From: an uncultured Acidobacteriota bacterium
GTDB lineage: Bacteria > Acidobacteriota > Thermoanaerobaculia > Gp7-AA8
Reading direction: 5' to 3'
NCBI GenBank assembly: GCA_963822445.1
Contig: CAWGHO010000002.1
Coordinates: forward strand, 1,184,001-1,248,000
Length of the DNA stretch: 64,000 nt
The translations under genes and the position numbers were made by a program. The notes under the pieces are model-generated. The model searched no databases and was not told the origin of the DNA. It saw nothing but the letters and a program-made list of their open reading frames with translations. Positions 26,248 to 39,587 of the stretch are shown piece after piece (the stretch's first letter is position 1; the number at the start of each line of letters is the position of its first letter).

Positions 26248-27756
26248 TCAGCCCCTCGTGAACCGCACCAGGTCCTCGAGCGTATCGATGTCGCCGGTCA
26301 TCGCGAACGGAATCGTGACCACATCGCGATCGAGGTGACGGATCAACTGGCGCGCGCCGACGTCGCCGCCGAGGGTTTTCAGGGCGGGGAAGAGCTCCGC
26401 GTGGAAGAGCGCCGGCACGCCCGGACCCTCGGGATAGCGCGCCGCGACGACGGGGGCGCGGGTCGCGCGATAGGCGTCGAGAAGTCTGCGCACGACATCC
26501 GCGGAGACGCCCGGCTGATCGCAGAGCATCAGCATGATCGTTTCAACGGGACGATCGCGCCGTTCGATGGCGTCGATCGCCGCGCGGATCGAGGAGGCGA
26601 TCCCTTCCTTCCAGGCGTCGTTGACCACCAGCTCGACCGGAAGACCGTCGAGCGCCTTGCGAATGCGAATGACCTCGGCACCAACGACCACGTAAACCGG
26701 CCCACTGTTCGCCGCGAGGGCGGCTTCGGCTGCGCGGCGGACGAGCGACTGCCCTTCGATCTCCACGAGCTGTTTCGGGCGTCCCAAACGGCGCGAGCCG
26801 CCCGCGGCGAGAATCACCACCGCGCTCTCGTCCGACGCGTCGTGAATCCGGCCGTGTCGATTGCGCAGTGCCGTCGCAGTCGTTTGCCGCAGCACCGATT
26901 GGATCTCGGCGATGATCGAAAGAGCAATCTCAGAAGGCGCGTCAGCGCCCAGGTCGAGACCGGCCGGCGCGCGCAACGAATCGGCCGGGACATCCGCTTC
27001 GGCAATCAGCCGCTGTGCGCGCTCGCGCGAACCGACGACGCCCAGATAGGCGGGCCGCAACGGCGCGAGTTGTTTGATCAGTTCCACATCGCGAAGGTAG
27101 TGGTGCGTCATCACCACCACGGCGGACGGCGACGGGTACGAGAAGCGCGAAGGAAGGTCTTCCGTCGGCGCGATCTCGATCGAATCCGCGGACGCAAATC
27201 GAACATCCGACGCGACAAACGGACGGTGATCGGCAATGCGCACGCACCACCCGAGTTGTTTGGCGAAGCGGAGCAGATCCTCAGCCGCCGGTGACGCACC
27301 GAAGATGAACAGCGAAGTGCGCGACACGATCGGCTGCACGAACGCGCCCGCAGGAGCGTCAGCCACGTTTCCCACAAAAGTCTGGCCGTCAGGCCAGGGC
27401 GTGATGACAGCGCCGCCGTTCAACAGCTGGTCATGCAGCGTTTCCGGAAGCGGCTCGATGAACACGGCCACTTCTCCCTGGCAGCCACTGCCCATGCCGA
27501 AGATCAGATCGTCGTCGGCCGACTTGAAACGCATGAGTGTCGTTTCGCGCGTAGCGATCACATTCAGCGCTCGCTCGATGATGTCGGCTTCCAGACAGCC
27601 GCCGCTGATGGCGCCCCAGGTCTTCCGATCGTGCCGCACGAGCAGCCGTGCACCTGCGCGGCGGTAGGTCGACCCCTTCGTCTCCACCACCGTCGCCAGC
27701 GCGCAATCGCCGCCGCCGGCGGCGCGCCACTCATCGAGGATGCGCAACAGTTCCAC
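26248..27756 (-). CDS. XdhC/CoxI Mo-cofactor chaperone fused to MocA-like Mo-cofactor cytidylyltransferase
   Basis: ATVVETKGSTYRRAGA, SGGCLE, GCQG, PAGLDLGA..P.EIALSI, then LAAGGSRRLGRPKQL, LCDQP, GDVGAR, DIDT. Confidence 0.92.
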   Translation of the reverse strand: MELLRILDEWRAAGGGDCALATVVETKGSTYRRAGARLLVRHDRKTWGAISGGCLEADIIERALNVIATRETTLMRFKSADDDLIFGMGSGCQGEVAVFIEPLPETLHDQLLNGGAVITPWPDGQTFVGNVADAPAGAFVQPIVSRTSLFIFGASPAAEDLLRFAKQLGWCVRIADHRPFVASDVRFASADSIEIAPTEDLPSRFSYPSPSAVVVMTHHYLRDVELIKQLAPLRPAYLGVVGSRERAQRLIAEADVPADSLRAPAGLDLGADAPSEIALSIIAEIQSVLRQTTATALRNRHGRIHDASDESAVVILAAGGSRRLGRPKQLVEIEGQSLVRRAAEAALAANSGPVYVVVGAEVIRIRKALDGLPVELVVNDAWKEGIASSIRAAIDAIERRDRPVETIMLMLCDQPGVSADVVRRLLDAYRATRAPVVAARYPEGPGVPALFHAELFPALKTLGGDVGARQLIRHLDRDVVTIPFAMTGDIDTLEDLVRFTRG

Positions 27757-27758
27757 GG

Positions 27759-28823
27759 TTAGACCTTCGCTCCCACCACCGTTCGCGGATCGTTGCGGTC
27801 CTCGCGCCACGCCGGATGGTTCACGTGATAGACGTGATCTCCGTTGAACGAAACCACGGCCGCGTCGAAGGTCATGGTGCCGATCTTCTTCCAGTTCGTG
27901 ATGTCGCGGCGTTCCTTGATCGGCAGGCCATGGGTCGTGCCCGTATCGGAGGTCTCGATGTCGAACACGAGCTTGCGCTTCGGCGCGGGATCGCCCGGAT
28001 CGTAGATGTGGGCCATGATCTCGTCGCGGAAGTCGATGTCGTCGCCGGGGATGACCGGCTGACCCGCGGCGACGGTGAGCTGCATGAATTCCGGAGCGCG
28101 CGTCGGGTCGGCGGGCGGTTTCCCCAGCTCGGCGATCTGGTAGACCTGCCGGATGGTCGGCTGTTTCTCGGCGATGTTCAGAACCATTCCGGTCAGAAGA
28201 AGGATGGGCATGCCGCTGCCGCGGCGGGAGACGGTCGTGTTCGGCGCGTTGCGCAGCTTCGCGCCGTTGATGGCCGGCGTGTCCTCGCCGCCGATGTCTT
28301 CCTGGGTGATGAAGCTCGCCGTCGGCAAAGGCTCGGGATGGTTCGGATCGGTGGTCGGATAGATGCGGCCGATCATCGACAGCGATCGCGTGTTGCCGCG
28401 CCGCGTTTCCGTGCAACACGTGGAGTAGCGGACGATCATCAGTCCGCGGCTCCCCTTGCGGAAGTAGCCCGTGTACGGCGTGTCTTCGGTGATCTCCCAC
28501 ATGCCGGTCATGCAGATGCCGTTTGCGTGCAGAAGACGGCGAAAGCCTTTCCCATCAGGTCCCCAGCGAAGATCGGAATCGGACGCGAGCACGCGTTTCG
28601 CCGCTGCGAGAAACTTCCACTTCCTGCCGCCGGGCAGCATGCCCTTGAGGAGCGGCATGAACGTGACCGGGAAGCGTTCCAGCGGCGCATTGCCCTTCGA
28701 GCCCCATACCTTTTGATAGGGGTTGGCGAAGATGGCATCGCGCACGACGCTGAAGCGCGAGCCGGCGAAGACCCGCTTGTCGGCGGCGGTGAACTCCTGG
28801 ATTCCGAGATCGTCTTCGGCCAT
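27759..28823 (-). CDS. Catalase-fold (heme-dependent catalase-like) hypothetical protein
   Basis: RRLLHANGIC..G.W.I, YTGYF, IVRYS match the N-terminal catalase-like pattern; ATG overlaps the upstream stop. Confidence 0.6.
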   Translation of the reverse strand: MAEDDLGIQEFTAADKRVFAGSRFSVVRDAIFANPYQKVWGSKGNAPLERFPVTFMPLLKGMLPGGRKWKFLAAAKRVLASDSDLRWGPDGKGFRRLLHANGICMTGMWEITEDTPYTGYFRKGSRGLMIVRYSTCCTETRRGNTRSLSMIGRIYPTTDPNHPEPLPTASFITQEDIGGEDTPAINGAKLRNAPNTTVSRRGSGMPILLLTGMVLNIAEKQPTIRQVYQIAELGKPPADPTRAPEFMQLTVAAGQPVIPGDDIDFRDEIMAHIYDPGDPAPKRKLVFDIETSDTGTTHGLPIKERRDITNWKKIGTMTFDAAVVSFNGDHVYHVNHPAWREDRNDPRTVVGAKV

Positions 28824-31393
28824 CAGAGCACGACGATCCTGTTCCTGAACGGCATCTCGCGGATGCGAGGTCCGCCCGCGGCGACGATCGCGTTGGCCAG
28901 GGCCGGGGCCACCGCCGGAGTCGGAGGCTCGCCGACGCCGCTCGGCGGATGGTCGCTCTCCATGATGTGCACGGACATCTTCGGCGTCTGGTGGATGCGC
29001 AGCACTGGGTAGTCATCGAAGTTGTGCTGTTCGACGGCTCCGTCCTTTACCGTGATCTCGCCGAGCAGCGCGTAGCTCAGACCGTAAACGATGCCGCCCT
29101 CCATCTGGGCCCGAACGCGATCGGGATTGACGGCGAGACCGCAATCGATCACGCCGCAGATCTCGTTGATGGTGAGCTCGTTCTTGTCATTGAGCGAGAC
29201 GTCGGCCACGATGGCCACGTAGCTGAGGAAGCTCCGGTGGGCGGCGATGCCGATGCCGCGGCCCTTCATTCCCTTGTACCGTCTGGCCTTCTCGTCCCAG
29301 CCGAACTCCTTCGCCGCCCGCTCCACCACTGCCCGTAGCCGCTGCGTGTGGGGCGGAAAAGCCTGCACGATCTCCATCAACTGCCCCTGCTCGTCCGGCA
29401 AATTGACGGTCTCGAGTGGCAGCTCGTTATTGCGGTATTGCTTGACCCCCTCGGATGCCAGCACGCGGCTGAGGTCGCGCCCCTTCCCGATCAGCTCGAG
29501 CAGATAGTCCTTGGAATCGCGTCCGGCAGCGCGCGCGAGCTCGTCGGCGAACGAGCAGATGCCGAAGGCGTGGTAGATGTTGGCGACGGAGCGCATCCAC
29601 CCGACCCGGATATGGTTCTCTGCCTTGCAGTTCTCGAGGCGCAGGTTCGGGATGTCGAAGGGCATGTCCTCGAGACCCTGCGCGCGCTCGATCCCGGAGG
29701 CGAATCCGTCTTCGCCGCCATCCGCGGTCGCCGCACGCAGTTTCGCCTGCTCGGGAGGAAAGAGCGTCCCGAAGAACGAGGTGAGCGCGCTGCGCTGCAG
29801 CAGGGCCGTCGGACGGCCGTCGCCGTCGAGCGCCGCCTTCAGGTATTGCGTACTTACGGCGTTGTAGTAACTGAACTGGATGTCGTCCTCGCGAGTCCAC
29901 TGCACCCGGATGGGGACGCCGGGATTCTGCGCGGCCAGAAGCGCTGCCTCGCCGATGTAGTCGGGTTTGGACTTGCGTCCGAAACCGCCGCCCAGCAACG
30001 GCACGTGCAGCGTGACCCTCTTGCGGAGATCCGCGATCGTTTCCTCTTTCTCCCAATCCGACTCAGGGATCCCGAATGCCAAACAACCCGGGATCAGCTG
30101 CCCGTGATAGGGGTTCTGCGTGGGCGCCCAGAGCTCGAGCCGGTCCTTCTCGAGGAGGGCAATGGCCATCGGCGGCTCCATGGGCGCCTGGGCCAGGAGT
30201 GGGGCGTAGTAGCCGCCTTCGACGACCTTGGCGGCGGAGGCGAAAGCGCCATCGACATCGCCCTTCTCCCGCACAGTCTTCCCCGGGGCCGCGGTCGAGG
30301 CTTCGAGCTCTTTGCGGTAGGCCGACGACTCGTACGATTGATGAGGGCCGCGGTTCCATTTGATGTGCGGTCGAAGCGCCCTGCGCCCCTGGAGCGCCGC
30401 CCAGGTGTTGTCCGCCAGAACCGCGACGCCCGCGTGCGGCACGAACGCGCGCCCCACGCCGCCGGGCGCAACGGTCGAAGGGAGGACGGCGGTCACACTT
30501 CGGACACCCGGCACAGCGAGTGCCGCGGTCGGATCGAAGCTGTCGAGTTGCCCGTTAGCCACGGGGCAGCGCTCGATCATCGCCGTGAGCATCCCGCGCA
30601 GCTTGATGTCGGAACCGTAGACCGCCTTCCCAGTGACCATGCTTGGGGCATCGTCGAATGGAATGTTCTTGCCGATGAAGCGCCACTCCGCCGGCTTCTT
30701 GAGCGCCTTCACGACCTCGCCGAAAGACGGGATCGGCTCCTTGGCGGCGTGAAGCAGCAGGCGCTTGCTACTGAAGTCCACGGAGCGGCCGCTGGGCTCG
30801 TGGTAGATCTTGTGCTGCCGCGCCCGGCACTCGCTGGCGTCGACTCCCATCACCTTCGCCGCCGCGCGCTCGAAGACGAGCCGCGTGCCGGCGCCCGTGA
30901 GCCGCATGATCTGGAAGTAGGCGGCCATGCTTCGCGAGCTGTCAGCGAACTGCGATGCCAAGGGCGGGATGAGGTACCGCGTAGTCTTTTGAGCGGGCAG
31001 TTCCTCGTAGGGAAACGGCAGTTTGAGATCCTCCGCCATCTTGAGAGGGGACTCGACCGCGAACGCGACCGAGTCGGCATCCGGCTGGTGCAGCTTGACC
31101 CGGCTCCAGTCGGCCTCGAGCTCGTCGGCCAGGACGGCTGCAAGACTGGAGCGGATGCCCTGGCCCATCTCCGGGCGGTGGGTGACGATGACAATGGTGC
31201 CGTCCAGCGGCTGAAGAGCGACGAACGGGCTGAGGGTGACGCGGTTGTGAAGGAGCTCTTTGATTTTGCTGAGCGTGCCGGTCTCTGCGGCCTGGAGCTC
31301 GTGGGGCGAGAAATAGCAGCCGAACACGACGGCCCCGGTGCCGACACCGAGATCGCGAAGAAAGTCTCTGCGGGTGACCCGGTAGATACTCAC
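28823..31393 (-). CDS. Xanthine dehydrogenase-family molybdopterin subunit (IorB-like) with Tat signal
   Basis: TRRDFL twin-arginine motif; EMGQG, APMEP, GGGFGRK, WMRSV, DCG.AVNPD, QMEGG, GVGEP. Confidence 0.93.
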   Translation of the reverse strand: MSIYRVTRRDFLRDLGVGTGAVVFGCYFSPHELQAAETGTLSKIKELLHNRVTLSPFVALQPLDGTIVIVTHRPEMGQGIRSSLAAVLADELEADWSRVKLHQPDADSVAFAVESPLKMAEDLKLPFPYEELPAQKTTRYLIPPLASQFADSSRSMAAYFQIMRLTGAGTRLVFERAAAKVMGVDASECRARQHKIYHEPSGRSVDFSSKRLLLHAAKEPIPSFGEVVKALKKPAEWRFIGKNIPFDDAPSMVTGKAVYGSDIKLRGMLTAMIERCPVANGQLDSFDPTAALAVPGVRSVTAVLPSTVAPGGVGRAFVPHAGVAVLADNTWAALQGRRALRPHIKWNRGPHQSYESSAYRKELEASTAAPGKTVREKGDVDGAFASAAKVVEGGYYAPLLAQAPMEPPMAIALLEKDRLELWAPTQNPYHGQLIPGCLAFGIPESDWEKEETIADLRKRVTLHVPLLGGGFGRKSKPDYIGEAALLAAQNPGVPIRVQWTREDDIQFSYYNAVSTQYLKAALDGDGRPTALLQRSALTSFFGTLFPPEQAKLRAATADGGEDGFASGIERAQGLEDMPFDIPNLRLENCKAENHIRVGWMRSVANIYHAFGICSFADELARAAGRDSKDYLLELIGKGRDLSRVLASEGVKQYRNNELPLETVNLPDEQGQLMEIVQAFPPHTQRLRAVVERAAKEFGWDEKARRYKGMKGRGIGIAAHRSFLSYVAIVADVSLNDKNELTINEICGVIDCGLAVNPDRVRAQMEGGIVYGLSYALLGEITVKDGAVEQHNFDDYPVLRIHQTPKMSVHIMESDHPPSGVGEPPTPAVAPALANAIVAAGGPRIREMPFRNRIVVL

Positions 31394-31857
31394 GACGTCA
31401 CCCCCGAAGCCTTCTTGATCGCTTCGCGGATGCGCGGGTAGGTGCCGCAGCGGCAGATGTTGCCGCGCATGACGTCGTCGATCTGTTCGTCGCTCGGCAT
31501 CACGCCAGTCCTGCGACACATCTCGACGAGGGGCACCGAGGCCATGATCTGGCCGGGCTGACAGAAGCCGCACTGCGGCACGCCGTCCTCGATCCACATC
31601 AACTGGCATGGATGGTTGCCGCCGAGGCCCTCGATCGTGGTGATCTTCGAGAGCGCCGCGACGCCGACGTCGACGGCGCAGGAGCGGGTCGGCCGTCCGT
31701 TGAGGTGCACCGTGCAGGCGCCGCATTGCGCGACCCCGCAGCCGAACTTCGTGCCTGTGAGACCGAGCTCGTCGCGCAGGGCCCACAGCAACGGCATGTT
31801 GCCGTCGACGTTGACCGTTCGCACGGTGCCGTTGACGTGGAGCTGAAATACAGGCAT
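31390..31857 (-). CDS. (2Fe-2S)-binding small subunit (IorA/CoxS-like)
   Basis: GTKFGCGVAQCGACTV, ITTIEGL, QCGFCQPG, NICRCGTY. Confidence 0.96.
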   Translation of the reverse strand: MPVFQLHVNGTVRTVNVDGNMPLLWALRDELGLTGTKFGCGVAQCGACTVHLNGRPTRSCAVDVGVAALSKITTIEGLGGNHPCQLMWIEDGVPQCGFCQPGQIMASVPLVEMCRRTGVMPSDEQIDDVMRGNICRCGTYPRIREAIKKASGVTS

Positions 31858-31870
31858 CGAAAGCCTCCTC

Positions 31871-33364
31871 TCAGAATTTGCGGCGAAGCTCTACACGGAC
31901 GCCGTAGATGTTGTCCTGCTTCTCGAGCCAGCCATGCATGGCGTCGGCGCGGAAAATCCAGGCGTTATTGAGCGGCTGCTGGAAACGGACGCCGAGGGCG
32001 TACTGGTCTCCCAGTGGGCTGTCGCTCATGCGCTGAACCACGGCGCCTTCGACGACGAGCTGCCGCGTGATGACCCACAGCTTCTCCAGGCCCACTGCCA
32101 CGCCGAAGGAATCGTGCGCGCGTCCGTCGAGCGTCGGATAGCCGGTCAGGCCGTCGGACTCGAAGTTGATGCCGGTGTTGTTCAGGACACCGCCCGTCCC
32201 CGCGGCGCGCGCCAGCGACTGCGGGCTGTTGAAGCCGGCGAAGAAATTGGCGTACGGCACCAGGAATCCCGGGTCGCTCCTGTGGAACGAATTCTCGACC
32301 AGGAGCAGGACTCCGTCGGCCGTCTTGACCGCCCCCGACTGGCCGAAGTTGCCGATCAGACGGACGCTGTTCGACAGGCCGATCGTGTCGGTTGGCCGGT
32401 ACCGGCGCGTGAAGGCAGCGGTGACGTTGTGATAGCTCTGGTCGCTGTCGTCGGCGGCGACGTAGCCGTAGCCGTATTCGGCGTAGCCCTTCAGGAGGTC
32501 GGCGAATCCGGCCATGCCGAACATCTTCGCGTTGTCGCCCGGCGCGGCGTCGGTCGTCACCTTGTCGAAGGCGGCGAAGAACGTGAAGTCCATGTTGCTG
32601 ATGTCGAGTTTCGGATTGCTTCTCGCCGTGATGCCCATGGCGATGCCGTCGAAGGCATCGTTGAGCCAGATACCGTTCTGCGTGAAGAGCGGCACGCGGC
32701 CGAAGGCGATGGGCAGGTCGAACGTAGTCCTCTTGTTCGTGATGCCCTCGCGGATGGCGTTGACGTCGCCTTCGAAGAACAGCGTTTCGAGCTTGAAATC
32801 GAACTGGTCGATGAACTCGCTGTCACCGCCGCTGAACTGATAGCGCGTGAACGATGCGCCGTTGTCCAGCGGGCGCACGAAGGCGTGGATGCGCTCCGTG
32901 GCGGTAATGGCGAAATCCATGTCCAGGTTCAGGCGTACGGCAAGCGCGCCTTGCTGGGTGTCTCCGCCGGGAGGAGCCGTACCGTTGTCGTAAAAGGCGC
33001 CGCCGATGCGGAGGTCGCCGTAAGCCATGAAGTGGGAGTTGATGGGGTTTCTCTGGCCGAGGAACGTCGGCCGCGGTGTATACGCACCGCGGTCATAGAG
33101 ACGAATGCCCAGTTCGACCGGCATCTTGGCCGTCTTGTTCATGTGCTTGCCGCCGTAAATAGCCAGCTGGGCCTCGGCGTCGTAGGGCTCGTTCTCGAGG
33201 TTGGGATTGGGTCCGAACCACTCCTTCGGAGGTTCCCCCGGGAGCAGTTTTGCCTCGGGTGACATCTCCGGGGGGTGCTTGTCGTCAGCCACAGCATGCG
33301 GTGCCGCAGCGAACAAGAGCAGTCCGGCGAGCAGAAGATTCACGGTGCAGGCTTTCGCGTTCAT
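31871..33364 (-). CDS. Putative outer-membrane beta-barrel protein
   Basis: Signal peptide, many alternating amphipathic beta-strands, C-terminal YGVRVELRRKF ending in Phe (beta-signal-like). Confidence 0.7.
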   Translation of the reverse strand: MNAKACTVNLLLAGLLLFAAAPHAVADDKHPPEMSPEAKLLPGEPPKEWFGPNPNLENEPYDAEAQLAIYGGKHMNKTAKMPVELGIRLYDRGAYTPRPTFLGQRNPINSHFMAYGDLRIGGAFYDNGTAPPGGDTQQGALAVRLNLDMDFAITATERIHAFVRPLDNGASFTRYQFSGGDSEFIDQFDFKLETLFFEGDVNAIREGITNKRTTFDLPIAFGRVPLFTQNGIWLNDAFDGIAMGITARSNPKLDISNMDFTFFAAFDKVTTDAAPGDNAKMFGMAGFADLLKGYAEYGYGYVAADDSDQSYHNVTAAFTRRYRPTDTIGLSNSVRLIGNFGQSGAVKTADGVLLLVENSFHRSDPGFLVPYANFFAGFNSPQSLARAAGTGGVLNNTGINFESDGLTGYPTLDGRAHDSFGVAVGLEKLWVITRQLVVEGAVVQRMSDSPLGDQYALGVRFQQPLNNAWIFRADAMHGWLEKQDNIYGVRVELRRKF

Positions 33365-33378
33365 GCTCGTCCTCTCTC

Positions 33379-35181
33379 TCACCGAACCTCGAACTCGACG
33401 GCGTAGACATGCGTGTCATCGGCCCATTCGTTCTCGGACCGGATCATGTCGCGCGTGGCTTCGACGAACTGCATGAAGTAAATGGGCTCGGTCCTCGCGC
33501 GCACGCGGATGGCCAGCTTGTACGTGCCGGGTTTCGTCATCAGCTTTGCCGGCACTTTGTAGGGAGCGACGCGGGTACCGAGAGGCGGGATACTTCGTTT
33601 CTCCATCCGCGCGAGGGGAGGGTGATTGAGCAGCGAGGTCGGTGTGCCGCCGGGACGGATGAACGGCCGCTGATCGACATCCAGGTTGATCGGCAGATAC
33701 ATCTCCCGATCCGTTCCCTTCACGTTCGTGGTGATGAACTTCGCCTGCATGTTCACGAGCTGGTCGTCGTGAGGGATCTTGCCGGCGCGGACGTCGAGCG
33801 ACTGCAGGTCAGCCATGTCGCCGTGACTGTCGACGTAGCCCGATTCCCAGATCCGCTTGCCGTCAGGATCGATGAGGGCCACGTTGATCCACAGTTCGGG
33901 CTGTGCGCCGAGGGAGCCCGAGGGGAGGTTGTGACCCTTATTGAGATTGGTGAGCTTGTACTTGAAGGACAAGGCCTTGCCGACCGACGGGCTTCCATCG
34001 AAGAACGGCCCATCGAGCCTGGAGGCTCCCTCCAGGAGTTTCAGGCGCTGCTCCTTCCGCTCGTACCATCTCTTGATGTTCTCCGACACGATCTTCCAGG
34101 CCATCTTCCGTTTGGCGGGGTCCTGCCATTCGGGTGGGAAGGTTGCCGCGGCCGCACCGCTGCTCTCGAAGGCGTCGTCCCCCCACTTGTCGCGGTAGTT
34201 GAACGTCAGCCACTGCTGCGGCGTGAACGGTGAGTCCTCCATCCGGAAGGGGAAGAGACCGGGATGGCTGATGGGGTAGCCCGGACCGACGAACGTGTGG
34301 TCGGTCAGCGGCCGCTGGTCGTTGACGTAGTGTCCCTCGGCGCAGGTGAACTTTCCGTCGGAGCCGAGCTTCACGCCGTTGACGCACGCTGCCCACCCCT
34401 TGTCGTACCCGGCGTTCTTGCCCGGGTCGACGCTCATGTGGCACTGCTGGCAGGTGATGTTTTCCTTGCGCGCGGGAGAGGCCCGGTACTCTTCCCAGAC
34501 CGTCTCGAGCTTGATGCCGGGATGGACTGCGACCTGGTGGCAGGTCACGCAGAACTCCGACGCCCGGAGCAGGTCGGACTGGACGGCCGCCTGGTGCATC
34601 CGGATCCATTTCTTGCCGTCGGCCTCCGCCGGCCGGTCGGGCTGGTCGGGGCTGACCAGAATCCCCAGCCGCATCGCTTCGCTGATGGCCTTGATGCCGC
34701 CGGTGGTGTCGAAGGGGCCGAAGACGGCTTCGTGGATGCTGCCCGGCGTGATCCTGCGCGCCCCGTTGACCTTGCCGTAACCCTCACCGGCACGGTGGCA
34801 GGTCACGCAGGTGATGCCTTCGCGCGAGGCCGGGCTGCGGTCCCACCAGGCGATGTCGCGTCTCTCGCCCAGGGACGTTCCGACGCTGGCGTGGCAGCGC
34901 ACGCAGAACGAGCCGATGGTGCCCGACGCCAGGTCGTTGATCTTCTGCTCGAACTTGTTGAACATCGGCGAGACGCTGGCGTACGCGTGCGATGAGTTGC
35001 TCCACTGCTTGTACTGATTGGGATGACACTCGCCGCACATCCGCGCCGACGGATATTGCTCGTTCGCTGTCGCCCAGGCGTGCGGGTTGTTCTCCGGCAG
35101 CGGGTTGGGAAGCTGCTGGCCCGTGGCAGGGCTCAGCATCGTCAGCAGAAGGACGGCGACCACCAATCCGGCTCTACGCAT
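33379..35181 (-). CDS. Periplasmic pentaheme c-type cytochrome
   Basis: Signal peptide; five CxxCH motifs (CGECH, CVRCH, CVTCH, CVTCH, CQQCH); RBS GGGAG. Confidence 0.92.
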   Translation of the reverse strand: MRRAGLVVAVLLLTMLSPATGQQLPNPLPENNPHAWATANEQYPSARMCGECHPNQYKQWSNSSHAYASVSPMFNKFEQKINDLASGTIGSFCVRCHASVGTSLGERRDIAWWDRSPASREGITCVTCHRAGEGYGKVNGARRITPGSIHEAVFGPFDTTGGIKAISEAMRLGILVSPDQPDRPAEADGKKWIRMHQAAVQSDLLRASEFCVTCHQVAVHPGIKLETVWEEYRASPARKENITCQQCHMSVDPGKNAGYDKGWAACVNGVKLGSDGKFTCAEGHYVNDQRPLTDHTFVGPGYPISHPGLFPFRMEDSPFTPQQWLTFNYRDKWGDDAFESSGAAAATFPPEWQDPAKRKMAWKIVSENIKRWYERKEQRLKLLEGASRLDGPFFDGSPSVGKALSFKYKLTNLNKGHNLPSGSLGAQPELWINVALIDPDGKRIWESGYVDSHGDMADLQSLDVRAGKIPHDDQLVNMQAKFITTNVKGTDREMYLPINLDVDQRPFIRPGGTPTSLLNHPPLARMEKRSIPPLGTRVAPYKVPAKLMTKPGTYKLAIRVRARTEPIYFMQFVEATRDMIRSENEWADDTHVYAVEFEVR

Positions 35182-35351
35182 AAGGCTCCCTCTCGTCATG
35201 CAGCCCAATGGTCAGTCACAGCTAACGGCCATACAGCTTTTCGGCCGCACCGCATTAAGAATTCTTGTGATTGTTTAAGGAACTTTATCACTACTGGCCG
35301 TGACTCTTCCCATCAGTTAGTGCGCACGTCGTCTCGTTCGTTACAGATTTA

Positions 35352-37169
35352 TCAGGCGACCATCGCCGCCGGCGTCTTCTTCGCGTCGGCGAGGATCACG
35401 TCGGCCGCTTTCTCGGCAATCATGTAGATCGGTGTGACGATGAAAAATCCGGGGATGCGCGGAAATACCGACGCGTCGACGACGCGCAGGTTCTCCACGC
35501 CGATGACGCGAAAGTTGCTGTCCACCACGGCGTTCGGATCGCTGGCCCTGCCCATCGGATTCGAGCAGGAGGCGTGATGCCCCCAGGCGTTGTCGCGGAC
35601 GAACTCGCGGACCTGATCATCGCTTGCCTTCTCGGATCCTGGGATGACCTCTTTTTTGATGGCCGTGTTGTGCTTTGAGATCCTTCGGACGAACCGGACG
35701 CCTTCCACGACGGCGTCAAGATCGCGTTTGGCAGTGACCGGCTCGTCGAAATACCTGAAGTTGATCTCCGGCCGCTGCCGCGGATCGGATGACGCGAGCC
35801 GCACGTAGCCGGTGTTTTCCGTGTGGGCCTTCAACACCAGCCAGGTGAGGAAGTTCTTCGTGCGCTCGGTCTCTTTGGAGTAGCCGCGGAAATAGCCGTG
35901 GAACTTGCCGGCCACCGCAAACATGAACAGATCGGGATCGGAACGGTCCGGCGATGATTTCTTGATTACCGCCAGCAACGCTCCGTTGGTCGTGTAGACG
36001 CCCCTTCCGTTCTGCCAGTCGACGTAACAGGGATCGCCGGCCTGATTGGGCAGCGGCGGCGCGAAGGTGGCGTTCTTCAGGATCTTCCAGTCCTGCTTCA
36101 TCTCGCTGACGACGCCGATTTCGTAGCGGTCCTGGAGGTTCGTGCCCACGCCGGGACGATCGGCAATCACCGGAATTCCGAATTGCTGGAGATGCGCGGC
36201 CGCTCCAATTCCCGACAGCATCAGCAGCTGCGGTGAGTTGAACGCGCCACCGGCGAGGATGACCTCGCGCGAGCAGTAGTACTTCCTGATCTCGTACGTG
36301 TTCGTGCTCGATGCTTTCGGGTCGGCGTCGTAGAGGTGCTGGCCTTCCCAGCACTCGACGCCGATCGCGCGCTTCCTTTCGTCGAACAGAATCTTCGCGG
36401 CCAGATTGCTTTGCCGGATGACGAGCTTCTGCGGCCACTTCGCACGAACGCTGTTGATCAACTCCCGCGTGCCGGCGCGGCGCCCTTTGAGCGTGGCCAG
36501 CGGCGCGAAGGCCACCCCTTCGAATTTCGGGTGACGCCAATCGTTCGGATCCTGCGGAAGCCTGGGAAGAACGCCACCGACGCCCTCCTTCCACGCGGCC
36601 AGGATCGCGTCGAAAACGGTTTGCACGACGGCGGGATCGCCGAGGCCGAGGGTGAGATCGAAGCCGGTGGTGGTGAGCCAGCCCTTGCTGCCGTGGCGGG
36701 AAGCGGCCTGTTGGACCGGATCGGTGACGTACTCGCAGCGCTCGATGTCCTCGAAGTACTTCCGCATCTTGTCCGGCGCCCAGGACGCGTCGCCGGTGAG
36801 ATCGGCGATGAACTGCCAATCGCTGTTGTGCGGAACCACGGTGATCATGGCGTGGTGCTGGGTGCAGCCGCCCAGCGTGCCCGCACGCGGATAGAACACA
36901 CCGCCCTTGTCCGGGTCGTACTTGGGGTCGCGTTTGGAGCGCTGCTCGTCTCCGTAGTGTCTGGGGAAGAACTCCCAGGAGATGTCGGGATGCTCACTCG
37001 CGAACGCATGGAAGACCGGCACGTTGTACCAGTCCTGTTCCGGCGCCTGTCCGGCCTCTATCAGCCCGACCTTGTATCCCGCTTCGGCGAGGCGGGCCGC
37101 AACAGGCCCGCCTCCCGCACCGGACCCGATCACGATGTAATCGAAATCGGGGTTCTGCGGAGATCCCAT
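35352..37169 (-). CDS. GMC family FAD oxidoreductase
   Basis: IGSGAGG, YPRAGTLGGC, GGAFNSPQLLMLSGIG, WGHH, LRVVDASVFP. Confidence 0.95.
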   Translation of the reverse strand: MGSPQNPDFDYIVIGSGAGGGPVAARLAEAGYKVGLIEAGQAPEQDWYNVPVFHAFASEHPDISWEFFPRHYGDEQRSKRDPKYDPDKGGVFYPRAGTLGGCTQHHAMITVVPHNSDWQFIADLTGDASWAPDKMRKYFEDIERCEYVTDPVQQAASRHGSKGWLTTTGFDLTLGLGDPAVVQTVFDAILAAWKEGVGGVLPRLPQDPNDWRHPKFEGVAFAPLATLKGRRAGTRELINSVRAKWPQKLVIRQSNLAAKILFDERKRAIGVECWEGQHLYDADPKASSTNTYEIRKYYCSREVILAGGAFNSPQLLMLSGIGAAAHLQQFGIPVIADRPGVGTNLQDRYEIGVVSEMKQDWKILKNATFAPPLPNQAGDPCYVDWQNGRGVYTTNGALLAVIKKSSPDRSDPDLFMFAVAGKFHGYFRGYSKETERTKNFLTWLVLKAHTENTGYVRLASSDPRQRPEINFRYFDEPVTAKRDLDAVVEGVRFVRRISKHNTAIKKEVIPGSEKASDDQVREFVRDNAWGHHASCSNPMGRASDPNAVVDSNFRVIGVENLRVVDASVFPRIPGFFIVTPIYMIAEKAADVILADAKKTPAAMVA

Positions 37170-37182
37170 GCATCTCCTCGAT

Positions 37183-39421
37183 TCAGAACGTCTTGATGTA
37201 CTCGATCAGCGCGCGCTTGTCGGCGTCGGGCAGATCGGTGCCGAAGTAATGGCCTTTGTCCTCGATGAAGTCGGGGCAGGAGTTCAGGCCGTAGAGCTCC
37301 TTCACGACGGGCGACTCCAGCCAGCGTTTCGTAGCCGCGTCTCCGGTCAGCCCTTCGCTCTTGATGGCCTTCATCACCTTGACCGTGTCGAGGAGCAGGT
37401 GGGCCAGATCGCCTGCCTTGCGCACGCCGCCGAGCTCGAGGTTCGTGTTCGCCAGCAGGTTCACCGGCGTTCCTTTCGGGATCGGTCCGAACGCGAAGTA
37501 CTTCGCACCGGTGACCGGATCGGTTTCCATGTTTTTCCGCAGCAGACGCCGCAACGGTGGCGATGGAGGTACGAGTCCGGCACCTTCAGCCAGCTCTCCT
37601 CGGTGGTCAGCCACAGAGACGTCGATTGCCCTTCCGCGCCATCCCTGTTGCCCGCCGCGCCGGAGCGCTTCTCCGGCCAGAGCATCTTGGTGATGCCGTC
37701 GTTGAAAGCTTCCATCCGTTCATCGACGGAGACGCCGTGCACGTGCTTGCCGACGACGTTGTGATGCAGGTAGGGCGCGGTAGCCCAGATGCTGACGAGC
37801 GTGGGCGGACGGTAGTAACCGCGGCCGCCGCCGGGGACTGTCCATTTGCTGTTGGTCTTGGTGATCGGATCCCACACGTCGATCGCGCCGACGGGCGGAA
37901 GGGTCTTGTAGGTCTCGGACGAGAAGTTGTCCCAGATCTGTCCTCTCATTCCGTTGGTCGCCACCGCGCGCTGGGCATTGGTTTTGACTTCAGTCACGGG
38001 GATGCGCTCTTCGCTGCCGAGGTGGTTGCCGGTCGAGGAAGTCGGAATCCATGACCGATTTCTCGAAGAAGGCGACTCCCGCGGCGGAGTTCGGATCGAC
38101 GCCTTGGGGCGGGCGCTTGCTCGAGTGGCAGCGGGCGCAGTTGCGCGCGAACGTGAGCTTGCCGCGATCGAGCAGCGCCTGATCGGTGCTGATGTACTTG
38201 CGGCCACCGGTCGCATCCGCAAGCTTGTGCGGCTGGGCGAACTTGACGAGGTAGCCCGCGAGGTCGGGCGCGGCGCGCTCGCTCCAGTTCCAGGCCGGCG
38301 AGTTCTTCTGCGCGATCTTCACCTGAATGGGGGTCTGCTTCTTGATGCCGATGAGCGGCTTGAAGTTCGTCGTCCAGTGCTCCCAGTACTCGCCGATGTT
38401 GAGGTACACGCGCGAGAGCGCACCGTGGAAGCCGACCGAGTCCGCGCCCTCTTTGAGAACGCGCGGCGCGAGCACGGTGTCCGGTTGCCCGGCCACCAGC
38501 TCGAGATTCTTCAGGTCGAGTGCGCCGCCGGTGAGCTTCTCCGGAACGGCCACAGCCGATGCGCCCGGGAGGGGCGAGGTTGTAGACCGCATTCATCGTT
38601 CCGGGGTTGTTCAGGTAGTCCGTGGCGATGAACGCCGTGTCCAGCGAGCCGGCCGGATTCGACAGCAGCAGCTGCTTGACGAAGTTCTTCGAGTCCAGCT
38701 CGTGGCCGAACACATTCCAGATCTTCAGGTAGTGCTGGCCCACGTAGTCGGAGAAGTTGGCGAAGTCGGCGGGCTCGTTCGGATCGGCCGGCGGATTCAC
38801 CGGATCGGGCCCGACGTGGCAGAACGAGCAGGCCATTCCGACCATGTAGGGGCGCTCGAGTTCCTTGTTCGTGTAGTAGTTCGGATCGTTCCAGTAGCGG
38901 TTCGCATCCCACTTCGCGGGATCGAATTTCGGGTTCTTGAACAGGCGCAGGCCCATGACGCCGCTGGAGATGCCGTACGTCGGGATGTCGAGGCGCTTGT
39001 CGATGTCGAACTTCGAGCCGGGCTCGCGCGGCACGTCGATGTGCAGGCCGTACTCGTTCGGCTGCGACGGCTGCATGTAGCCGGGCTGGTTGAAGATGCC
39101 GTAGGTCTGGAAGCGCCGGTTCCTCGGCGAAGCGATCATCTTCAGCAGATCGCCGGTGCCGAAGCCGTACTTGGCGAGCCAGTTCCAGAACCCGGCGTTG
39201 TCGCCCGACCAGAGGTTCCAGATCACCCGGCCGTTGATGTCCGACTGGGTGAGGGGGACGGGCCGTCCCTGAACGTTCATCCCCGGGAACGGGTCGAAGT
39301 CGACGTACTTGTAGTCGACCACCCAGGTCTGCTTCACCTGCTGGCTCGCGCAGCCGGCCAGAGAGGCGATCAGAATCGGGACGAGAAATCCGACGAGTGT
39401 GCGATGACGGAATCTCCGCAT
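37183..39421 (-). CDS. Di-heme cytochrome c lipoprotein, RoxA/cytochrome c peroxidase-related; three apparent frameshifts (~38560, ~38031, ~37565)
   Basis: Lipobox LAGC; CSFCH and CARCH; YYRPPTLVSIWATAPYLHHN; ends GHYFGTDL..ADKRALIEYIKTF; assembled from four overlapping ORFs. Confidence 0.8.
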
Positions 39422-39587
39422 AGGGCCTCCGATGAAGCTGAATTGTTTTACCGAGTTACTAGAGGAGAGCCACAAGGGAGGAAATCCCTACCCTCGCTCT
39501 TTCCTGATAGGTAGTGACGATCCCGGCCTCAGCGTTTCATGGCCAATGGAATACTGCTTACCCCGACCCTGTATGAAACTCGGCCGT

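Follow-up and report, generated by a model that had tools for sequence, protein, structure and literature searches.

A conserved pair of a pentahaem c552-type cytochrome and an outer-membrane-type beta-barrel, here in one operon with a flavin-less molybdenum hydroxylase

A pentahaem cytochrome and an outer-membrane-type beta-barrel, modelled with 18 strands, are encoded side by side as a widespread, unnamed and stable module with more than 2600 relatives. The two proteins probably act together in a single complex. In this soil acidobacterium their genes share one operon with those of a molybdenum (Mo) enzyme. The pair may be an outer-membrane redox port, fed here by periplasmic dehydrogenases; we hold this reading tentatively, at somewhat short of an even chance, and infer both the direction of electron flow and the geometry.

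The cluster (Table 1) lies in the window, the whole 64,000-nucleotide stretch of DNA that was analysed. Every gene from 39475 down to 26248 is on the minus strand, and gaps or overlaps between neighbours do not exceed 14 bp, except for 143 bp ahead of the cytochrome gene. The original prediction gave no strand; all the features it described are on the minus strand. Its account of the gene order was correct: a secreted cytochrome with five CxxCH motifs is followed, within about 15 bp, by a protein of about 500 residues with a terminal Phe, and then by the genes for [2Fe-2S] and Mo subunits, both borne out by their Pfam domains.

Table 1. Genes of the cluster and their positions in the window
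Feature	Position	Strand	Remarks
cyt5, pentahaem c-type cytochrome	33379..35181	minus	600 aa from M10; ORF opens at 35208
Outer-membrane beta-barrel, 18 strands in the model	31871..33364	minus	497 aa
[2Fe-2S] small subunit, two-subunit Mo hydroxylase	31390..31857	minus	155 aa
Molybdopterin-binding large subunit	28823..31396	minus	857 aa, twin-arginine signal
Protein of no named family	27759..28823	minus	354 aa
XdhC-type chaperone fused to MocA-type molybdenum cofactor cytidylyltransferase	26248..27740, start approximate	minus	
GMC-family FAD oxidoreductase	35352..37169	minus	605 aa; PF05199, PF00732
Dihaem lipoprotein gene, four frame pieces in window	37183..39475	minus	

Homologues of the cytochrome, which numbered 2790 among 8000 scored candidates, start at M10 of its ORF, and one of them (P0121) is 100% identical to the window protein. 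A Sec-type signal peptide and exactly five CxxCH motifs can be read from the sequence. The five-haem domain (residues ~45-330) precedes a C-terminal beta-sandwich (~396-608) containing a highly conserved loop at residues 489-543, and conservation is very strong over the full length of the protein. PF13435 (Cytochrome_C554) matches at 3.6e-11. The pentahaem c552 of Thermochromatium tepidum (PDB 5ze8) matches with an E-value of 2.5e-12 for the single sequence and 7.6e-16 for a profile, in an alignment that spans all five haem motifs. The model of the whole cytochrome is poor (mean pLDDT 60.6), with pLDDT mostly 70-96 over its strands at 396-456 and 545-608. Foldseek with this model gave 5ze8 as the sole significant match (E 1.5e-07, TMt 0.58), and the alignment took in the whole 5ze8 chain, C-terminal beta-sandwich included. 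By its haem domain and beta-sandwich the cytochrome is a member of the pentahaem c552/PHC family.

The spacing of the CxxCH motifs is identical in eight of eight diverse family members (33-100% identity), and six His outside the motifs are invariant across them (H43, H74, H205, H304, H315, H426), a number sufficient to give each of the five haems bis-His ligation. Among these eight, no Cys outside the motifs is invariant: the L021 and L026 cytochromes have no extra Cys at all, and the two in the window cytochrome sit in an insertion missing from L003, L004 and L006. Two other identities for the cytochrome were rejected. As an MccSep/ExtKL protein (NF040886) it reached 37.2 bits against a cut-off of 250, and 23.2 bits in the genome scan; its profile found the MccSep chains 9wt8 and 9wt9 only at E 0.11, and neither a conserved Sec/Cys catalytic residue nor a conserved haem-ligating Cys is present. 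As a decahaem MtrA/DmsE protein it has five CxxCH motifs and scores 30.6 bits with TIGR03508, far below the cut-off of 192.2, in agreement with the original statement that it is not a decahaem MtrA.

The barrel gene begins with an ATG at 33364, 14 bp after the cytochrome stop codon (33379-33381). Its product opens with a signal peptide (...PHAVA/DD), followed by a conserved N-terminal periplasmic arm (~36-105) and a barrel (108-496), and ends ...RRKF; a C-terminal Phe was found in 108 of 150 barrel representatives and five CxxCH motifs in none of the 150. The AlphaFold2 model has a mean pLDDT of 85.3 and a pTM of 0.76, with pLDDT above 90 over most of residues 108-496, and DSSP counts 18 strands in it. 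The barrel that had been suspected is thus, by its model, a true outer-membrane-type beta-barrel with a confident 18 strands. VIA-align matched it to OprD/Occ channels, MOMP and AlgE with Z 24-27.6 and rmsd 2.8-3.7 Å over 311-346 residues, and to chitoporin with Z 23.0-23.4; all 50 matches listed were porins and channels of 16-18 strands, and the top ones include OpdK with vanillate and a BenF-like porin. Pfam (E≤0.01) and NCBIfam searches placed the barrel in no family, including OprD/Occ (PF03573) and AlgE (PF13372); a language-model lead puts it near a cluster with PF13372 on 31% of its members. A haem chain within the lumen, as originally envisaged, does not fit 18 strands and best matches to substrate-specific channels. 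The original prediction had itself named a substrate channel, too small for a haem chain, as the finding that would speak against a chain in the lumen, and the fold is that of an 18-strand substrate channel. Identity as an MtrB-like sheath was also rejected, the strands numbering 18 rather than 26 and no MtrB/PioB family matching in Pfam (E≤0.01).

The co-occurrence of the two genes proved to be general. The cytochrome gene is directly upstream of the barrel gene, on the same strand, in all 20 loci with room upstream (22 were fetched), and the order is the same in six of six further loci, including those of a remote subfamily at ~28-35% identity. As the pair recurs in 26 of 26 related loci, spanning Acidobacteriota, Planctomycetota and one Rhodospirillales MAG, it is not a chance juxtaposition. 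There are also natural fusions. Three fusion-sized proteins (~1050 aa) were present among the 120 cytochrome homologues listed, and in the two inspected (P0220 and P0204, 1054 aa) the last residues of the cytochrome are joined to the mature N-terminus of the barrel, with the barrel signal peptide precisely missing. Elsewhere (L021, L025, L026, L029) the pair has as neighbours 8-11-haem c554-like cytochromes, a 10-haem membrane-anchored cytochrome, a b561-like membrane protein and a cNMP/4Fe-4S protein, a setting that marks out the pair as the last link of an electron-transfer chain. The 8-11-haem neighbours have ordinary signal peptides and no lipoboxes.

Prediction of the complex, made with cytochrome residues 330-609 only and without haems, gave ipSAE values of 0.66, 0.66 and 0.63 against 0.00 for the best control; 116 of 157 solved complexes came up to this mark, as did 2 of 215 mismatched pairs. 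At least 65% of contacts were common to the runs, with a partner pLDDT of at least 74. Barrel residues 38-51 are predicted to pair with cytochrome strands 442-446, 566-568 and 602-606, while cytochrome residues 490-502 and 525-546 are predicted to contact alternate lumen-facing residues on many barrel strands (287/289/291, 319/321/323 and 423/425/427 among others). Of the barrel positions so contacted, many do not vary in alignment A1 (E198, G199, N230, G231, R321, E357, Y371, N396, G398, G425 and E439). The predicted complex therefore places the conserved cytochrome loop inside the barrel, and no haem is predicted there. It is the synteny in 26 of 26 loci, the fusions and the prediction (0.66 against 0.00) that together argue for a complex. 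Of the porin-cytochrome conduit originally proposed, the conserved pair and the predicted complex stand, but the barrel has 18 strands and the cluster encodes no outer-surface multihaem cytochrome.

The Mo enzyme is a two-subunit, flavin-less, TAT-exported hydroxylase of the IorAB type. Its [2Fe-2S] subunit (PF01799 2.2e-24, PF00111 2.8e-08) has no signal peptide of its own, and every NCBIfam match to it was below cut-off. The Mo subunit (PF02738, MoCoBD_1, 2.4e-23; PF20256, MoCoBD_2, 2.7e-23) carries a TAT signal (TIGR01409, 20.6 bits, cut-off 16.7) and reached no equivalog family in NCBIfam. As had been predicted, the cluster holds no FAD subunit of the CoxM/PaoB type: PF00941 (FAD_binding_5) has three matches in the genome and none of them is in the window. 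The XdhC/MocA fusion matches PF02625 (6.8e-24), PF13478 (1.5e-28) and PF12804 (2.2e-38).

In nine of nine close acidobacterial loci (L001-L008, L030) the barrel gene is followed by those for the FeS and Mo subunits, but this holds for none of the 17 loci outside this clade with at least 500 bp downstream, which suggests that the pair is the stable module and that the link to the Mo enzyme is clade-specific. Among 301 Acidobacteriota genomes sampled, full-length Mo orthologues (65% identity) were found only in G040 and G070, which also carry a close barrel. IorAB-type Mo hydroxylases are known to use c-type cytochromes, and in one of four paralogous IorAB-type loci (L035) a dihaem cytochrome c gene is directly upstream of the FeS gene. 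This paralogue and the operon structure suggest that the Mo enzyme may hand its electrons to the pentahaem cytochrome.

The GMC oxidoreductase gene (PF05199 9.6e-33, PF00732 9.4e-18), which ends 143 bp upstream of the cytochrome gene, is present in nine of nine close acidobacterial loci, at varying positions; its product has no evident signal peptide in its sequence. The most conserved gene of the cluster encodes the 354-aa protein, with 86-91% identity in relatives by tblastn. This protein had no Pfam, NCBIfam or PDB match; the Atlas assigns it (score 0.94) to a cluster called 'catalase family protein', 37% of whose members carry PF00199, a relationship that we take as a lead only. The dihaem lipoprotein gene is one ORF of 749-769 codons (stop to stop) in L001-L004, with two CxxCH motifs and a lipobox. 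In the window it is frameshifted, with matches in frames -1, -2, -3 and -2; it scores 26.7 bits with PF21419, exactly at the cut-off, and is distantly like RoxA and di-haem peroxidases. This RoxA-like gene is the sole lipoprotein gene between 26248 and 39475, where no outer-surface multihaem lipoprotein of the MtrC/OmcA kind was found. The whole genome has only nine stop-to-stop ORFs with three or more CxxCH motifs.

In the redox port that we tentatively favour, the conserved N-terminal arm of the barrel would wrap the C-terminal beta-sandwich of the cytochrome, and the haem-free loop 489-543 would occupy the half of the 18-strand barrel that faces the periplasm. Insertion of the loop would keep the chain of five haems at a narrow channel's inner mouth, and no wire of haems would run across the membrane. 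An extracellular redox partner, either small or bound to a surface, for which chelated iron, quinone-like organic matter and sulfur species are candidates, could gain access to the haems at the barrel or through it and there exchange electrons. The TAT-exported flavin-less Mo hydroxylase would be the likely electron donor in this organism, with the GMC flavoenzyme a possible second, and in other lineages the pair would work beside membrane and multihaem modules in place of the Mo enzyme. It is rather unlikely, in our judgement, that the c552-type pentahaem plugging the 18-strand barrel is an unrecognised general outer-membrane electron outlet, through which periplasmic dehydrogenases, here the flavin-less Mo hydroxylase and perhaps the GMC flavoenzyme, discharge directly onto acceptors outside the cell such as Fe(III) or humic matter and bypass the quinone pool. 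The bearers of such an outlet would be aerobes of soil and water (Thermoanaerobaculia and Pirellulaceae among others).

The pentahaem could instead act in the periplasm as the terminal reductase or oxidase of some small inorganic compound, with the barrel as its docked uptake channel and electrons coming from a nearby module, here the Mo enzyme. This division of labour, like that of ExtI and ExtKL, seems to us unlikely, although several lines of evidence point to it. The c552 family, with which the haem domain is homologous (E 7.6e-16), is said to include Geobacter ExtKL/MccSep, and a C-terminal immunoglobulin-like beta-sandwich is described for it (PMC11976967). ExtKL/MccSep is reported to be a periplasmic polysulfide reductase (PMC13510729), and ExtI an outer-membrane porin-like protein, regarded as an uptake porin, that is needed for selenite and tellurite reduction (PMC5877670). 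The barrel fold is that of 18-strand substrate channels, and strong conservation over the full length, as in the cytochrome, is usual for enzymes. Yet the catalytic hallmarks of MccSep are missing, with no Cys or Sec conserved beyond the haem motifs and scores far from the family (37 bits against 250 for NF040886; E 0.11 for 9wt8/9wt9), and the six invariant His could fill all the distal haem positions. The loop predicted in the barrel would also block a simple uptake channel, and precise fusions of enzyme to channel would be unusual for an uptake porin.

In another reading, the barrel imports the organic substrate of the Mo hydroxylase, the GMC enzyme or both, with the cytochrome just a periplasmic acceptor passing electrons to the respiratory chain and only substrate crossing the outer membrane. 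This would fit the aromatic and carboxylic acid channels among the top fold matches and an operon with two dehydrogenases and cofactor-maturation genes; the genome also carries haem-copper oxidase and bc-type complexes, so the organism respires aerobically. We nevertheless think it improbable, as the invariant lumen-facing residues of the barrel coincide with the predicted cytochrome contacts, the fusions join barrel to cytochrome, and in 17 of 17 loci without the Mo enzyme it is the cytochrome, not the dehydrogenases, that the barrel retains. A true Mtr/Pcc-type conduit, with a haem chain spanning the outer membrane inside the barrel to minerals or an outer-surface cytochrome, is very improbable. 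The genes are adjacent, as in MtrAB, multihaem cytochromes adjoin the pair in L025, L026, L028 and L029, and PF22113 (27.1 bits against 30) and the DmsE decahaem family (30.6 against 192) both match weakly, below threshold. However, the barrel falls short of 26 strands, having 18, with nothing larger than 18 strands among the 50 VIA-align entries listed; the haem domain belongs to a protein of ~560 residues, too large for sheathing; and the neighbouring 8-11-haem proteins elsewhere lack lipoboxes, with none encoded in this window.

To our knowledge, porin-cytochrome complexes are the only route by which electrons cross a Gram-negative cell's outer membrane. Those described so far (Mtr, Pcc, Cyc2) derive for the most part from specialists that respire metals or oxidise iron, whereas this pair is found in common soil Acidobacteriota and aquatic Planctomycetota and is built differently, from a c552-type pentahaem and a barrel of 18 strands with a plug of protein predicted in it. 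Should it be a redox port, ordinary heterotrophs would exchange electrons with the outside more widely than thought, and the Mo-enzyme operon would offer the first example in which a periplasmic dehydrogenase feeds such a port directly. Should it be a channel with an enzyme, the c552/ExtKL family, whose function is mostly unknown, would gain a testable partner, with a bearing on how substrates reach MccSep-type enzymes.

The pair resembles several known systems in part. Among IorAB-type enzymes, which include isoquinoline 1-oxidoreductase and membrane-bound aldehyde dehydrogenases, the Mo enzyme shares the 2Fe-2S and TAT-exported Mo subunits, the missing FAD subunit and the nearby XdhC/MocA maturation gene, but the pentahaem-barrel pair takes the position of the usual small cytochrome c subunit. 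All five haem motifs of T. tepidum c552 align with those of the cytochrome and the fold matches the whole chain, although identity is 14% and c552 has 435 aa. We take c552 to be a soluble protein with no assigned function, and know of no barrel partner for it. In the extHIJKLMNOPQS cluster of Geobacter sulfurreducens, as described in PMC5877670, a c552/PHC-kind pentahaem is likewise encoded beside an outer-membrane porin-like protein, with 10-12-haem cytochromes and membrane b-type and Fe-S proteins nearby, as in the relatives of this locus. Here the two genes stand in the opposite order, ExtJ and ExtH are missing, and the pair is joined to a Mo hydroxylase; the cytochrome is ~600 aa against 423 positions in NF040886 (37 bits against the cut-off of 250) and lacks the Sec/Cys catalytic pair, and the barrel is likened to ExtI by description only.

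In MtrAB, MtoAB and PioAB, too, a periplasmic multihaem cytochrome and an outer-membrane barrel are encoded by adjacent genes, and partial insertion of the cytochrome into the barrel, predicted here, is a further likeness. The solved MtrAB barrel has 26 strands, against 18 here, and ten haems compare with five; the inserted part here would be a haem-free loop, there is no MtrC-like surface partner, and no MtrAB-type model reached threshold in Pfam and NCBIfam searches of the pair. Cyc2 of iron oxidisers has a cytochrome N-terminal to a small barrel of 16-18 strands, and the rare fused relatives have the same order. Cyc2 is a single polypeptide with one haem in a cytochrome part of fewer than 100 residues, whereas here five haems and a beta-sandwich make up ~560 residues and the two parts are normally separate genes. 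Likened by architecture only, the two may share a common logic, in which a small solute meets haem at a narrow barrel. The OprD/Occ channels, AlgE, MOMP and chitoporin have the same 18-strand fold at 6-13% identity, and the barrel described here differs from them in its conserved 70-residue N-terminal arm and its obligate cytochrome partner.

The cytochrome and barrel genes belong to a single minus-strand row in which gaps and overlaps are at most 14 bp, except for 143 bp ahead of the cytochrome gene. The original prediction, that a cytochrome and a barrel protein are accompanied by 2Fe-2S and Mo genes with no FAD subunit, was correct on every point, the strand being minus. The CoxM/PaoB-type FAD domain, PF00941, has three matches in the 6.0-Mb genome and none within the window.

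Genes of the row 26248-39475, listed in order of transcription, from 39475 down to 26248
Gene	Coordinates	Strand	Remarks
Dihaem lipoprotein gene	37183-39475	-	Four frame pieces in window; single and undivided in relatives (749-769 codons, stop to stop)
GMC flavoenzyme	35352-37169	-	Signal peptide not visible
Pentahaem cytochrome	33379-35181	-	Five CxxCH; Sec signal
Barrel protein	31871-33364	-	Signal peptide; C-terminal Phe
2Fe-2S subunit	31390-31857	-	PF01799, PF00111
Mo subunit	28823-31396	-	TAT signal
354-aa protein	27759-28823	-	No family
XdhC-MocA fusion	26248 to about 27740	-	Cofactor maturation

The dihaem lipoprotein gene shows weak similarity to RoxA and di-haem peroxidases, and its reading frame is unbroken in four loci of the closest clade (L001-L004). 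In the window its matches run through frames -1, -2, -3 and -2, so that the frame seems to shift three times (near 38552-38571, near 38030-38032 and near 37530-37569), and the neighbouring genes are all intact; this is either a pseudogene or a local patch of assembly errors. No gene of the cluster is better conserved than that for the 354-aa protein, with 86-91% identity where the cytochrome has 74-77%. It matched no Pfam or NCBIfam family, and PDB sequence searching gave chance-level matches only. The lead from a language-model search was a cluster labelled 'catalase family protein' (score 0.94; 37% of its members carry PF00199). A small haem protein related to catalases and linked with the Mo enzyme is one possibility.

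The cytochrome and the barrel protein are a unit. The barrel protein was used to fetch 22 loci, of which 20 extend far enough upstream, and in every one of these the cytochrome gene comes immediately before the barrel gene on the same strand. Six further loci from sampled Acidobacteriota genomes have the same order, so that the pairing proposed as a check held in 26/26. These six include a remote subfamily (barrel about 28-32% identical, cytochrome about 35%). Planctomycetota carry long Pro/Ala/Ser-rich N-terminal extensions on both proteins, which explain the apparent gaps between the pair's matches. Three of the 120 cytochrome homologues listed are of about 1050 aa, and in the two inspected the cytochrome end is joined to a mature barrel, the barrel's signal peptide being exactly removed. 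Fusion to a cytochrome was also considered for barrel relatives with long N-terminal extensions, and rejected: the extensions are Pro/Ala/Ser-rich linkers, and 0/150 representatives have five CxxCH motifs.

Complex prediction used barrel residues 33-497 and the cytochrome C-terminal domain (330-609), with the haem domain left out. The ipSAE scores were 0.66, 0.66 and 0.63 against 0.00 for the best control, passing a mark attained by 116/157 solved complexes and 2/215 mismatched pairs; the runs had at least 65% of contacts in common and a partner pLDDT of at least 74. No solved complex of this kind is known to us, which makes a pass owed to memorised structures unlikely. In the predicted interface the barrel's N-terminal arm would add strands to the cytochrome beta-sandwich, while cytochrome loop 490-546 would contact the barrel around its whole circumference, at alternate residues of the strands. 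This loop is highly conserved, yet of low confidence when modelled alone, and many of the barrel residues it is predicted to contact are invariant in the barrel-family alignment. The geometry of the complex is a model, not a measurement.

The barrel protein has no Pfam or NCBIfam family, and its PDB sequence matches were at chance level. Its own family is large: 2630 of 8000 scored candidates belong to it, and clustering at the 50% level leaves 640 representatives, with a C-terminal Phe in 108 of the 150 representatives listed and a conserved stretch of ~70 residues N-terminal to the barrel in the family alignment. The AlphaFold2 model, built on a 40-row alignment (mean pLDDT 85.3), shows 18 strands over residues 108-496, counted from its DSSP string. 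With Foldseek and VIA-align, which group the protein with 18-strand substrate channels, it bears out the barrel topology originally proposed. OprD/Occ, Campylobacter MOMP and AlgE align with Z 24-27.6 and rmsd about 3 A over 311-346 residues, and chitoporin with Z 23.0-23.4. MtrB is missing from the 50 VIA-align entries listed and the Foldseek rows shown (about 35 entries, to rank 50), an absence that says nothing beyond those lists.

The cytochrome has five CxxCH motifs, their spacing constant in 8/8 diverse members. Its only solved relative is the Thermochromatium tepidum pentahaem c552 (profile E-value 7.6e-16 across all five motifs), which is also the sole significant Foldseek match of the cytochrome model, covering the whole chain; the other matches are to generic beta-sandwiches (E>=3e-3), and the model is poor (pLDDT 60.6). 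The C-terminal beta-sandwich is well modelled and the haem part poorly, as expected because haems were absent from the modelling. Outside the motifs, six His are invariant in the family, so all five haems could have bis-His ligation, the pattern of an electron carrier, although this is suggestive only. Some orthologues, including the window's, have an insertion of ~14 residues with two Cys (…AACVNG…FTCAEGH…; residues about 273-295 of the 609-aa ORF), missing from other Mo-linked orthologues (L003, L004, L006), which may form a disulfide-stapled surface loop. A selenoprotein reading was dropped. The orthologue in a Holophagales MAG (L008, 6117-7874) has an in-frame stop 16 codons ahead of the normal end where others have Glu; as the position is not a Sec site, the stop is an error or truncation.

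In all nine loci of the closest clade (L001-L008 and L030; cytochrome >=68% identical) the barrel gene is succeeded by the FeS and Mo genes; among the remaining loci that reach 500 bp or more downstream, this is so in 0/17. On the identity tiers of the loci, the Mo link thus appears confined to this clade. The barrel is present in 10 of 301 sampled Acidobacteriota genomes (E<=1e-20), and full-length Mo orthologues in only two, both of which also have a close barrel. The pair is absent from the four paralogous IorAB-type loci inspected. At one of these a dihaem cytochrome c gene overlaps the FeS gene start, so the phylum already offers one example of an acceptor cytochrome encoded immediately upstream.

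In other lineages, electron-transfer modules surround the pair in place of a Mo enzyme. The recurring cluster (L021 120-10791; L025 5223-14722; L026 862-10729; L029 445-8985) contains a cNMP-binding/4Fe-4S protein, a b561-like or DUF4405-like membrane protein, a membrane-anchored 10-haem (or FHA-domain multihaem) cytochrome and 8-11-haem c554-like cytochromes. Taken whole, the cluster resembles an as yet unnamed electron path running all the way from inner to outer membrane. Together with the Mo link, these varied modules make the pair look like a terminal module taking different electron sources. A module resembling that in L021 occurs in the window's own genome, not linked to the pair (L031, G000:C3:552000-566000), with a cNMP-binding protein, an 857-aa protein with two FHA domains and 10 CxxCH, an HbpS-like protein, an LVIVD-repeat protein and a c554-like tetrahaem cytochrome.

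No description of the pair was found in the literature searched. Acidobacterial porin-multihaem clusters have been reported as 8-13-haem systems in Terriglobales, UBA7540 and Bryobacterales (2026 preprint, 10.64898/2026.05.27.727921); Thermoanaerobaculia and pentahaem proteins are both absent from the preprint's main text, and its supplements might hold related clusters.

We tentatively favour the pair being an outer-membrane redox port. Its haems would sit where a narrow, partly plugged barrel opens on the inner side, and in the closest clade the port would be supplied with electrons by the flavin-less Mo hydroxylase transcribed along with it. The original prediction was of a porin-cytochrome conduit, but by its own measure of lumen size a barrel of 18 strands, against the 26 of MtrB, is too small to sheathe a haem chain as MtrB does. 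This strand number and the lack of a surface cytochrome contradict a transmembrane haem wire of the Mtr type, which we regard as highly improbable. The genome has only nine ORFs with three or more CxxCH, so the organism is not a Geobacter-like metal respirer. That the barrel is simply an uptake channel for the dehydrogenases' substrate seems unlikely and is a poor fit, since loci lacking the dehydrogenases still keep barrel and cytochrome together.

The main rival to the redox port is modelled on the Geobacter porin-like protein ExtI and pentahaem cytochrome ExtKL: an enzyme of the periplasm served by a substrate channel of its own, which we consider possible but rather doubtful here. A pentahaem family with an immunoglobulin-like domain unites c552 and ExtKL, according to a cable-bacteria paper (PMC11976967), and ExtKL, also called MccSep, is described as a polysulfide reductase of the periplasm that relies on Sec and on a Cys ligating a haem (PMC13510729). 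The cytochrome here is not of the MccSep/ExtKL kind: it has no conserved Cys outside the haem motifs, scores 37 bits against the 250-bit cut-off of the MccSep family model (NF040886) and matches the MccSep chains at E 0.11 only. A search for ExtKL in the window's genome and control genomes gave nothing above cut-off. The pair is well supported as an entity among porin-cytochrome complexes, its function being putative only, and the redox port would differ from the ExtI/ExtKL-style enzyme mainly in using outer-sphere transfer rather than catalytic-haem chemistry.
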